NCBI RefSeq assembly: GCF_003334305.1
Contig: NZ_QOWS01000016.1
Source: Escherichia coli
GTDB taxonomy: Bacteria; Pseudomonadota; Gammaproteobacteria; Enterobacterales; Enterobacteriaceae
Direction: 5' to 3' (one strand)
Length of the DNA stretch: 64,000 bases
Each line of letters starts with the position of its first letter. Positions within the stretch are counted from its first letter, which is position 1. The notes beneath the pieces were generated by a model that worked only from the letters and a program-made list of their open reading frames with translations, was not told the origin of the DNA and searched no databases. A program made the translations under genes and the position numbers. Of the stretch, positions 43,634 through 47,701 are shown piece by piece.

Positions 43634-46600
43634 TTGAGCCAGGAATACACTGAAGACAAAGAAGTCACATTGACAAAGTTAAGTAGCGGCCGTCGCCTTC
43701 TGGAAGCGTTGCTGATCCTTATTGTCCTGTTTGCCGTCTGGTTGATGGCTGCCTTACTAAGCTTTAACCCTTCGGACCCCAGCTGGTCGCAAACGGCCTG
43801 GCATGAACCTATCCATAATTTAGGTGGGATGCCCGGTGCGTGGCTGGCAGATACGCTGTTCTTTATTTTTGGCGTGATGGCTTACACCATTCCCGTCATT
43901 ATTGTCGGCGGTTGTTGGTTTGCCTGGCGTCATCAGTCCAGTGACGAATACATTGATTATTTTGCCGTTTCGCTACGCATCATTGGCGTTTTGGCGCTCA
44001 TCCTTACCTCCTGTGGTCTGGCGGCAATCAACGCTGACGATATCTGGTATTTTGCCTCCGGTGGCGTCATTGGCAGCTTACTAAGCACTACGCTACAACC
44101 ACTGCTACACAGTAGCGGGGGAACTATTGCGCTGCTCTGCGTTTGGGCTGCGGGCCTGACGCTGTTCACCGGTTGGTCATGGGTGACCATTGCTGAAAAA
44201 CTCGGCGGCTGGATTTTAAACATTCTCACCTTCGCCAGTAATCGTACCCGTCGCGATGATACCTGGGTCGATGAAGATGAATATGAAGATGACGAAGAGT
44301 ATGAAGATGAAAACCACGGCAAACAGCATGAATCACGCCGTGCCCGTATTCTTCGCGGCGCGCTAGCGCGTCGTAAACGGTTGGCGGAAAAATTCATTAA
44401 TCCGATGGGGCGGCAAACAGACGCTGCGTTGTTCTCCGGTAAGCGGATGGATGATGACGAAGAGATTATCTACACTGCACGCGGTGTGGCTGCCGACCCG
44501 GACGACGTCCTATTTTCGGGCAATCGTGCAACGCAGCCAGAATATGACGAATACGATCCATTATTAAACGGTGCGCCAATTACCGAACCTGTCGCTGTAG
44601 CAGCTGCTGCTACCACGGCGACACAAAGCTGGGCTGCGCCGGTTGAACCTGTGACTCAGACGCCGCCTGTTGCCTCTGTTGATGTTCCACCTTCGCAACC
44701 TACAGTAGCCTGGCAGCCTGTACCGGGTCCACAAACGGGAGAGCCGGTTATTGCTCCTGCACCGGAAGGTTACCCACAGCAGTCACAATATGCGCAGCCT
44801 GCAGTGCAATATAATGAGCCGCTGCAACAACCAGTACAGCCGCAGCAGCCGTATTATGCACCTGCAGCTGAACAACCTGCGCAACAACCTTACTACGCTC
44901 CTGCGGCGGAACAACCTGTTCAGCAACCGTATTACGCCCCTGCGCCAGAACAACCGGTGGCAGGTAACGCCTGGCAAGCCGAAGAGCAGCAATCCACTTT
45001 TGCTCCACAGTCTACATACCAGACTGAGCAAACTTATCAGCAACCAGCCGCTCAGGAGCCGTTGTACCAACAGCCGCAATCCGTTGAACAGCAGCCTGTT
45101 GTGGAGCCTGAACCCGTTGTAGAAGAGACAAAACCCGCGCGTCCGCCGCTTTACTATTTTGAAGAAGTGGAAGAGAAGCGAGCCCGTGAACGTGAACAAC
45201 TTGCGGCCTGGTATCAACCGATTCCAGAACCGGTTAAAGAACCAGAACCGATCAAATCTTCGTTGAAAGCGCCTTCTGTTGCAGCAGTACCTCCAGTAGA
45301 AGCCGCTGCCGCTGTTTCTCCGCTGGCATCTGGCGTGAAAAAAGCGACACTGGCGACGGGGGCTGCCGCAACCGTTGCCGCGCCAGTCTTCAGTCTGGCA
45401 AATAGCGGTGGACCGCGTCCGCAAGTCAAAGAGGGGATTGGCCCGCAGTTGCCACGACCGAAACGTATCCGCGTGCCAACTCGTCGTGAACTGGCGTCTT
45501 ACGGTATTAAGCTGCCCTCACAGCGTGCGGCGGAAGAGAAAGCCCGTGAAGCCCAGCGCAATCAGTATGATTCTGGCGATCAGTATAACGATGATGAAAT
45601 CGATGCGATGCAGCAGGATGAACTGGCACGTCAGTTCGCCCAGACACAGCAGCAACGCTATGGCGAACAGTATCAACATGATGTGCCCGTAAACGCAGAA
45701 GATGCAGATGCTGCGGCAGAGGCTGAACTGGCTCGTCAGTTTGCGCAAACTCAACAACAACGTTATTCCGGCGAACAACCGGCTGGGGCGAATCCGTTCT
45801 CGCTGGATGATTTTGAATTTTCGCCAATGAAAGCGTTGCTGGATGATGGTCCACACGAACCGTTGTTTACGCCAATTGTTGAACCTGTACAGCAGCCGCA
45901 ACAACCGGTTGCACCGCAGCAGCAGTATCAGCAGCCGCAACAACCAGTTCCGCCACAGCAGCAATATCAGCAGCCGCAACAGCCGGTTGCGCCGCAGCCG
46001 CAGTATCAGCAGCCACAACAGCAGGTTGCGCCGCAGCCACAATATCAGCAGCCGCAACAACCGGTTGCGCCACAGCCGCAATATCAGCAGCCGCAACAAC
46101 CAGTTGCGCCGCAGCCGCAGTATCAACAGCCGCAACAACCGGTTGCACCGCAGCAGCAGGATACCCTGCTTCATCCGCTGTTGATGCGTAATGGCGACAG
46201 CCGTCCGTTGCATAAACCGACGACGCCGCTGCCTTCTCTGGATTTGCTGACACCGCCGCCGAGCGAAGTGGAGCCGGTAGATACCTTTGCGCTTGAACAA
46301 ATGGCTCGCCTGGTGGAAGCGCGTCTGGCTGATTTCCGTATTAAAGCCGATGTCGTCAATTACTCTCCGGGGCCGGTTATCACTCGCTTTGAACTTAACC
46401 TGGCTCCTGGCGTAAAAGCGGCGCGCATTTCTAACTTGTCACGGGACCTTGCCCGTTCACTTTCGACGGTGGCGGTGCGTGTCGTTGAAGTTATTCCTGG
46501 CAAACCCTATGTAGGTCTGGAGTTACCAAATAAAAAACGACAAACCGTTTATCTGCGCGAAGTTTTGGATAACGCCAAATTCCGCGATAATCCGTCGCCA

Positions 46601-47701
46601 TTAACCGTGGTGCTGGGTAAAGATATCGCCGGTGAGCCGGTGGTTGCCGATCTGGCGAAAATGCCGCACTTGTTGGTTGCGGGGACTACCGGTTCCGGTA
46701 AATCTGTCGGTGTGAACGCGATGATCCTGAGCATGCTTTATAAAGCACAGCCAGAAGATGTGCGTTTCATCATGATCGACCCGAAAATGCTGGAGCTTTC
46801 GGTTTATGAAGGCATTCCGCATCTGTTAACGGAAGTCGTTACTGATATGAAAGATGCCGCCAACGCGCTGCGCTGGTGTGTTAACGAGATGGAGCGTCGG
46901 TATAAACTGATGTCTGCGCTGGGTGTGCGTAATCTGGCGGGTTATAACGAAAAAATTGCTGAAGCCGATCGCATGATGCGTCCGATTCCAGACCCGTACT
47001 GGAAGCCGGGTGACAGTATGGATGCCCAGCATCCGGTGCTGAAAAAAGAACCATACATTGTGGTGTTGGTTGACGAATTTGCCGACCTGATGATGACGGT
47101 AGGTAAAAAAGTGGAAGAGCTGATAGCACGTCTGGCGCAAAAAGCCCGTGCCGCGGGTATCCACCTCGTACTGGCAACTCAGCGTCCATCGGTTGATGTT
47201 ATTACTGGTCTGATTAAAGCGAATATTCCGACCCGTATCGCCTTTACCGTATCCAGTAAGATTGACTCACGTACCATTCTTGATCAGGCTGGCGCGGAAT
47301 CACTGCTGGGGATGGGGGATATGCTCTACTCTGGGCCGAACTCCACGTTGCCGGTACGTGTCCATGGTGCTTTTGTTCGCGATCAGGAAGTTCATGCCGT
47401 GGTGCAGGACTGGAAAGCGCGTGGTCGCCCACAGTATGTTGATGGCATCACTTCCGACAGTGAAAGCGAAGGTGGCGCGGGCGGTTTCGATGGCGCTGAA
47501 GAACTGGATCCGTTGTTCGATCAGGCGGTGCAGTTTGTCACTGAAAAACGCAAAGCGTCAATTTCTGGCGTACAGCGTCAGTTCCGCATTGGTTATAACC
47601 GTGCAGCGCGTATTATCGAACAGATGGAAGCGCAGGGGATTGTCAGCGAACAGGGGCACAACGGTAATCGTGAAGTGCTGGCCCCACCGCCGTTTGACTA
47701 A
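43634..47701 (+). CDS. ftsK: DNA translocase FtsK
   Basis: 1355-aa ORF, TTG start with GGAGAG RBS; N-terminal TM domain, long Pro/Gln-rich repeat linker, C-terminal AAA motor (GTTGSGKS) and gamma domain. Confidence 0.9.
44843..44959 (+). repeat. 3 x 39-bp in-frame tandem repeat in ftsK linker ([13 protein letters not shown] units)
   Basis: Three near-identical 13-codon units read from sequence and translation. Confidence 0.8.
45890..46159 (+). repeat. 7 x 39-bp in-frame tandem repeat in ftsK linker ([10 protein letters not shown](P/Q)QY units)
   Basis: Seven near-identical 13-codon units; creates spurious ORFs on other frames and on the minus strand. Confidence 0.85.

Follow-up and report, generated by a model that had tools for sequence, protein, structure and literature searches.

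The analysed window, a stretch of 64,000 nucleotides from an Escherichia coli genome (contig NZ_QOWS01000016.1), contains ftsK in the gene order lrp-ftsK-lolA-rarA, with lrp upstream and lolA and rarA downstream of it. The same order is present in K-12 and in 15 other genomes. The gene encodes the DNA translocase FtsK and starts with TTG, and the length of 1355 aa given for it in a first-pass annotation of this DNA was confirmed (Table 1). The NCBIfam FtsK equivalog profile NF007615 scored 3117 bits against the window protein, with a cut-off of 1566, over residues 1-1355 of the 1355-position profile. An identical allele in NZ_CP030939.1 is annotated as ftsK.

FtsK of the window has the expected domain order: a 4TM anchor, a linker, the alpha domain, the FtsK/SpoIIIE P-loop motor, and the gamma domain. 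A Pfam scan run on residues 156-1355 returned no domain between approximately residue 192 and residue 865. The linker, which holds both of the repeat tracts described below, is Pro/Gln-rich and lies outside the solved structures, which begin at residue 844 (2IUS); tract B ends at residue 843, one codon ahead of the crystallised motor (2IUS, 844-1355). The FtsK linker has been described as unstructured, Pro/Gln-rich, and of a length that differs between species, with parts of it reported to be in contact with FtsQ, L, I, and Z (PMC5357621). A short acidic repeat (Table 1) has counterparts at the same place of ftsK in other genera.

Table 1. Features of the ftsK locus, with positions in the window
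Feature	Position	Strand	Basis or remark
ftsK CDS (DNA translocase FtsK)	43634-47701	+	TTG start, 1355 aa plus stop; ORF list
N-terminal membrane domain	43634-44206	+	ends at ~residue 191 (approximate); Pfam FtsK_4TM tail in truncated query
Short acidic repeat, 6/18-bp period	44270-44311	+	TRF
ms06 MLVA amplicon, 340 bp	44733-45072	+	primer sites 44733-44752 and 45053-45072, exact matches (PMC8215070 Table 1)
Other-frame ORF	44751-45122	+	judged non-coding
Other-frame ORF	44783-45424	-	judged non-coding
Tract A, three in-frame 39-bp units, residues 404-442	44843-44959	+	TRF and ftsK-frame reading
Longest other-frame ORF over tract B, 260 aa	45518-46300	-	ORF list; judged non-coding
ELARQF-type 14-residue motif, copy 1, residues 663-676	45620-45661	+	
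ms07 MLVA amplicon, 626 bp	45630-46255	+	primer sites 45630-45649 and 46236-46255, exact matches (PMC8215070)
ELARQF-type 14-residue motif, copy 2, residues 698-711	45725-45766	+	
CVN001 MLVA amplicon, 484 bp	45777-46260	+	primer sites 45777-45795 and 46241-46260, exact matches
Other-frame ORF	45843-46184	+	judged non-coding
Other-frame ORF	45867-46253	-	judged non-coding
Tract B, seven in-frame 39-bp units, residues 753-843	45890-46162	+	TRF and ftsK-frame reading
FtsK motor (alpha, beta, gamma), residues 844-1355	46163-47698	+	PDB 2IUS chain alignment; Pfam
Pfam FtsK_alpha, residues 866-966	46229-46531	+	
Pfam FtsK_SpoIIIE, residues 974-1187	46553-47194	+	
Pfam FtsK_gamma, residues 1290-1350	47501-47683	+	

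Two 39-bp tracts and a conserved motif pair

Both of the 39-bp repeat tracts noted in the first pass were recovered by TRF and by reading the sequence in the ftsK frame. For tract A, TRF reported an array of 2.9 copies at 44841-44955 (period 39 bp, 78% match, score 125), and the three in-frame units occupy exactly the interval originally assigned to them. Each unit encodes 13 residues, one of the three peptides being a variant with a terminal V, and the units lie 8-10 of 39 nt apart in pairwise comparison, nearly all of these differences being synonymous. The array reported for tract B comprises 6.9 copies at 45890-46159 (39 bp, 88% match, score 407), and its seven units are 2-9 of 39 nt apart pairwise. 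Their 13-residue peptides have ends of the (P/Q)QY type; the seventh ends in D and reaches 46162, slightly past the end first proposed at 46159. When the codons of the linker were shuffled (n=200), the top TRF score was 58, against 407 for tract B and 125 for tract A, and shuffling the codons of tract B alone gave scores of at most 202 against the real 407. Since the shuffled scores fall below the real ones, the arrays are no by-product of a Pro/Gln-rich composition.

A segment of 14 residues at about 45617-45766 had also been described as duplicated. Two copies of this ELARQF-type motif are indeed present (Table 1), separated by 21 codons and hence not in tandem, and they differ by eight synonymous and no nonsynonymous changes (pN/pS 0). 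Across the Enterobacterales, sampled at one genome per species, the motif occurs in one to three copies, and the version shared by E. coli and Citrobacter, FAQTQQQRY, is present twice. This distribution identifies an ancient conserved linker motif that has been kept as a split pair, not a recent duplication. The pair may merit attention from researchers working on the FtsK linker.

The differences between units also identify the frame that is translated. Among tract B units, 70 differences are synonymous and 30 nonsynonymous in the ftsK frame (pN/pS 0.11), while tract A units show 22 and 4, respectively (pN/pS 0.05, pS 0.82); codon position 3 of ftsK takes 70/100 of the differences in tract B and 22/26 of those in tract A. 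Because the differences are mostly synonymous, it is the ftsK frame that is coding, and the ORFs in other frames are compositional by-products; for the same reason, the arrays are old and not freshly expanded. The long ORFs that lie over the repeats in other frames and on the opposite strand, dismissed as spurious in the first pass, do exist, and their being long and open is what real overlapping genes would also look like. Changes at position 3, however, are silent for FtsK yet alter the other frames, which would encode monotonous strings of Leu/Arg or Ser/Arg/Asn. Repeats rich in CAG and CCG are stop-free in several frames from composition alone, and RefSeq annotates only ftsK over the repeats in K-12 and the other genomes inspected. 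That these ORFs are genes is therefore extremely improbable, and the original dismissal stands on the pattern of substitution in the ftsK frame.

Unit number across E. coli genomes

The ftsK CDS of K-12 MG1655 likewise starts with TTG and comprises 3990 nt, encoding 1329 aa, which bears out the K-12 length given in the first pass. Alignment with the MG1655 protein accounts for the 26 additional residues of the window protein as one 13-aa unit in each tract: three units against two in tract A, and seven against six in tract B. The tract region of ftsK is present in all 5,426 complete E. coli genomes, from which spread samples of 60 were drawn to read tract spans, one sample per tract. For tract A, spans of 321 bp (2 units), 361 bp (3 units), and 400 bp (4 units) were found in 19, 21, and 19 of the 60 genomes, respectively, the sample also including one partial match that is unreadable as a unit count. 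Spans of tract B were read with a long-flank BLAST query; flanks of ~120 nt split the alignments in roughly half of the genomes. The tract B region measured 1562 bp (6 units) in 22/60 genomes, 1601 bp (7 units) in 29/60, and 1679 bp (9 units) in a single genome; two genomes gave 1577 bp, which is 24 nt shorter, and six gave split matches that are unreadable as unit counts.

Direct dissection of alleles from 17 E. coli genomes widened this range, with 2, 3, or 4 units in tract A and, in tract B, 5, 6, 7, 8, or 9 units or, in EC2001, a single one. Comparing repeat counts among E. coli strains, as the first pass had advised, thus revealed counts of 2-4 and 1-9 and no uniform state. CFT073 and 536 carry 15-nt partial units (QQPQY) in tract B besides full ones. 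FtsK ranges from 1290 to 1381 aa over the 17 genomes, and every allele is in frame and full-length. Insertions and deletions among these alleles are confined to the two tracts, save for a 4-aa deletion in one strain, and amino-acid substitutions, too, are concentrated in the linker, which has 29 variable columns compared with four in the motor and two in the anchor.

Tandem repeats are well known for causing misassembly, and at 273 bp tract B exceeds a typical short read, so units might have been expanded or collapsed to create the difference between the window and K-12. The one-unit allele of EC2001, a singleton among the matches listed, could itself be an assembly collapse; the literature contains an ms07 allele '1' sized by PCR (PMC8215070), which lends independent support to a one-unit allele of this kind. 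For the window, positions 44700-46300 are 100% identical in independent complete genomes (e.g. AMSHJX01, strain 41), and at least eight further genomes match the tract B region at 100% identity, which excludes the collapse or artefact that the first pass had advised checking for. In addition, the 2-9 differences per 39 nt make the units individually distinguishable, and PCR fragment sizing in MLVA studies yields the same ladder of alleles (PMC5217547, PMC8215070). The length difference from K-12 is almost certainly real.

The K-12 laboratory derivatives DH1, DH5alpha, MC4100, and J53 have kept the K-12 spans at both tracts, and ST131 is monomorphic at CVN001, a typing locus that covers tract B (PMC5217547). 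Together these observations indicate that the tracts are stable over clonal time. A phase-variable contingency locus was considered and rejected. The indels measure 39, 24, and 12 nt, all multiples of 3, and 17/17 alleles are full-length; every change therefore preserves the frame. Nor was any switching seen within a clone, the K-12 derivatives having one allele and ST131 being monomorphic at CVN001.

Unit strings and the gain or loss of units

To follow individual units, each distinct 39-nt sequence was assigned a letter and the resulting strings were compared between alleles. Tract B of the window reads ABCDEFG, from which that of 20KM2762 differs by an exact 78-bp duplication (ABABCDEFG). 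Perfect adjacent copies, the mark of recent events, of units also occur in NA3664 ('dede...'), N17 ('OOQQ...'), and G5 ('...LL.'). K-12 reads HIJKLM and has relatives shorter by one unit, HIJKM and HIKLM. Several units are exact chimeras: unit 2 of K-12 combines the 5' end of window unit 2 with the 3' end of window unit 3, unit 3 of window tract A corresponds to units 3|4 of four-unit alleles, and the single unit of EC2001 corresponds to units 1|7. The 15-nt partial units are explained by a 24-nt deletion between two CAGCCGCAR direct repeats within a unit.

The perfect adjacent duplicates and exact junction chimeras fit misaligned pairing of units, by replication slippage or by unequal recombination. 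Slippage, which the first-pass annotation had named as the typical source of such variation, is thus compatible with the strings but shares them with its competitors, as slippage, unequal or RecA-dependent recombination, and gene conversion would each be expected to leave this same sequence evidence. The strings also qualify the earlier description of the window as carrying two extra units. One additional unit per tract is correct relative to K-12 and only relative to K-12, because the chimeras fit a loss in K-12 at least as well; the chimeric second unit of K-12 suggests that K-12 lost units and not that the window gained them. The allele of G5 Panama, by contrast, is a mosaic (A I C J K L L M), so that loss in K-12 over gain in the window is no more than a tentative reading.

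We therefore consider it very likely that the FtsK linker of the window contains two in-frame 39-bp minisatellites whose unit number changes by mispairing, whose length is tolerated, and which serve as typing markers. In the mechanism that we propose, the linker, which joins the membrane anchor of FtsK to its DNA-pumping motor, houses both minisatellites. Mispairing of units during replication or recombination would add or remove whole 13-codon units, and pairing of the 9-bp direct repeats inside a unit would remove 24 nt. As all of these changes are in frame and the linker is presumably tolerant of length, the alleles would persist and be stably inherited within lineages, and it is this stable inheritance that would allow the tracts to serve as typing markers. 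The window has a 3+7-unit allele (1355 aa) and K-12 a 2+6-unit allele (1329 aa).

Constraint on the linker and known typing loci

A cross-species scan that used a single genome for each species yielded 79 FtsK loci. At the site that corresponds to tract B, a 39-bp array is present in 'Escherichia sp. ESNIH1', in Citrobacter sp. FP75, and in Citrobacter werkmanii, where it has 5.1 copies (97% match). E. albertii has kept tract A, while its tract B is degenerate and largely lost, with an alanine run. More distant Enterobacterales have other Pro/Gln repeats in the tract B slot, between conserved EPLFT and (D/E)SLIHPFLMR motifs, examples being (QQP)x18 in Moellerella and 24-bp units in Serratia. 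In Vibrio, Shewanella, and Aeromonas, the FtsK linkers covered by the 79-locus scan are short and without such repeats. Linker variation across species matches the published description of an unstructured, Pro/Gln-rich region of variable length (PMC5357621).

The low pN/pS values show that constraint acts on the peptide, or at the least on its composition. Judged from these substitution counts, the label 'neutral spacer' is oversimplified, as the peptide is not free to drift. A stronger reading of the constraint is that copy number is functionally tuned, the units being selected modules that form a set-length tether or multivalent binding sites for the divisome or envelope, with alleles kept by selection and unit number adjusting how far the motor reaches or when the cell divides. 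Such tuning would agree with the near-saturation of synonymous sites in tract A, where the protein is almost identical, with the 5-9 units found in most tract B alleles, and with the reported contacts of linker parts with divisome proteins. Tuning would likewise be expected to preserve a 39-bp array at this site, as is seen in Citrobacter, 'Escherichia sp. ESNIH1', and Salmonella, or Pro/Gln repeats of another kind, as in other Enterobacterales. However, viable isolates have anywhere from 1 to 12 tract B units, E. albertii has largely lost the tract, and the frequent exchange of P and Q within units suggests selection on composition over a specific motif. In S. Enteritidis, moreover, exchanging an 84-bp indel of the ftsK linker between two strains had no effect on survival in egg white, the only assay used (PMC6137255). 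We regard tuning of this kind as very unlikely.

A related proposal starts from the unit peptide being nearly constant while synonymous sites approach saturation. The 13-residue units, together with the ELARQFAxxQQxRY(G/S) pair just upstream, might form a functional linker module, such that alleles of 1-12 units would change chromosome-dimer resolution or division timing. This is unlikely. The natural series of alleles (1-12 units in tract B, 2-4 in tract A) offers a ready set for testing linker length against FtsK function. A pair of length-tolerant minisatellites remains the reading that we prefer. Its significance beyond housekeeping is small and the biology is ordinary. It does explain why annotated lengths of E. 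coli FtsK differ (1290-1381 aa here), 1329 aa not being 'the' E. coli length, and it ties raw coordinates to three named typing loci (ms06, ms07, and CVN001).

Copy-number polymorphism of both tracts is already known: they are long-used MLVA markers, ms06 for tract A and CVN001/ms07 for tract B, and the polymorphism is in this respect an ordinary finding. CVN001 belongs to the generic E. coli MLVA of Lindstedt et al. 2007. Tract A and ms06 are the same locus, with no difference between them. The published ms06 alleles, 2, 3, and 4 (301-379 bp; PMC8215070), are exactly the three tract A states found here. Tract B is likewise the same locus as CVN001 and ms07, as both primer pairs bracket the array and the period is 39 bp, again with no difference. 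The alleles published for ms07 in a Shigella/E. coli MLVA scheme are 1, 3, 6, 7, 8, 10, and 12 (PMC8215070). CVN001 has a 39-bp unit and its allele is calculated as (size-250)/39 (primers in Table 1 of PMC8143711), which for the window gives (484-250)/39 = 6. This value is one unit below the direct count because the 250-bp offset contains one unit. In Swedish ESBL isolates the CVN001 alleles 4, 5, 6, 7, and 8 were reported at 1%, 40%, 40%, 13%, and 5%, respectively (PMC5217547), and the tract B counts sampled here agree with these frequencies once the one-unit offset is applied.

Similar loci are known outside E. coli. In the tolA gene, the VNTR SENTR1/SE-10 has a 45-bp unit and belongs to the same MLVA scheme as SENTR2 (PMC2430564 Table 1); like the ftsK tracts it is an in-frame minisatellite in an envelope/division protein, but gene and period differ, and the likeness is one of analogy only. 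The 39-bp repeat of Salmonella ftsK, known as STTR7/SENTR2 and present in 9.3 copies in S. Enteritidis (PMC2430564), is closer. It belongs to another genus, and its orthology with the E. coli arrays is probable from gene, position, and period. It resembles them in gene, in period, and in its use for typing, and in Salmonella, too, linker indels remove whole repeats.

Repeat tracts and motifs of the FtsK linker

The NCBIfam profile for FtsK, NF007615, has 1355 positions and aligns from 1 to 1355 with the FtsK encoded in the window. Its length is that of the 1355-aa form and not of the 1329-aa form found in K-12. Tracts A and B, both located in the linker, share a period of exactly 13 residues and units that start with QQP, while a unit of one differs from a unit of the other at 18-21 of 39 nucleotides, leaving approximately half in common.

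Coordinates of ftsK and its repeat features
Feature	Sequence	Coordinates	Description
ftsK	window (+)	43634-47701	1355 aa
Acidic repeat	window	44270-44311	14 residues, 6/18-bp period; shortly after membrane domain
Tract A	window	44843-44959	three units
Motif, first copy	window	45620-45661	14 residues; linker
Motif, second copy	window	45725-45766	14 residues; linker
Tract B	window	45890-46162	seven units
Single tract B unit	EC2001 locus (NZ_CP133811.1)	2930-2968	
(QQP)x18	Moellerella wisconsensis ftsK	2477-2637	9-bp microsatellite, perfect (100% match)

The two copies of the motif upstream of tract B differ by eight synonymous and no nonsynonymous substitutions. One to three copies of the form (A/E)L(A/R)xxFAxxQQxRY(G/S) are present per linker across Enterobacterales, in genera including Serratia, Yersinia, Hafnia, Pantoea, Pectobacterium, Proteus, and Photorhabdus; Vibrio, Shewanella, and Aeromonas, whose linkers are short, lack it. 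This looks like a conserved functional motif of the FtsK linker, and a limited look at the literature found no prior description of it. Separately, Mangrovibacter, Morganella, Moellerella, and others carry comparable acidic D/E/Y repeats at the site where the window has its acidic repeat.

The tract B slot in other species

In Moellerella wisconsensis, whose FtsK is 1392 aa long, the slot equivalent to tract B is occupied by (QQP)x18. Escherichia albertii NBRC 107761 retains a degenerate tract B of approximately two recognisable units just upstream of DTLLHP; in front of this tract lie 11 consecutive alanines, for which a 6-bp repeat codes.

Length variation among E. coli alleles

Tract B of CFT073 and 536 includes 15-nt partial units encoding QQPQY, each corresponding to a 39-nt unit that has lost 24 nt through a deletion between its two CAGCCGCAR direct repeats. 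Other genomes commonly have spans that fall 24 nt below a ladder of whole units. Among the 17 alleles dissected, the only indel outside tracts A and B is the loss of four residues (AAAT) from the alanine-rich part of the linker in Z1324SEC0014, at window-equivalent residues 577-580.

Tract B of EC2001 consists of one unit only, resulting in an FtsK of 1290 aa, and this genome gave the sole single-piece match among the best 30 matches listed. The remaining unit is chimeric, joining the 5' end of unit 1 to the 3' end of unit 7. The allele could be a genuine deletion of 234 bp, or it could be the product of assembly collapse. In favour of the deletion, an allele '1' of ms07, the MLVA typing locus whose primers bracket tract B, has already been published, sized by PCR (PMC8215070).
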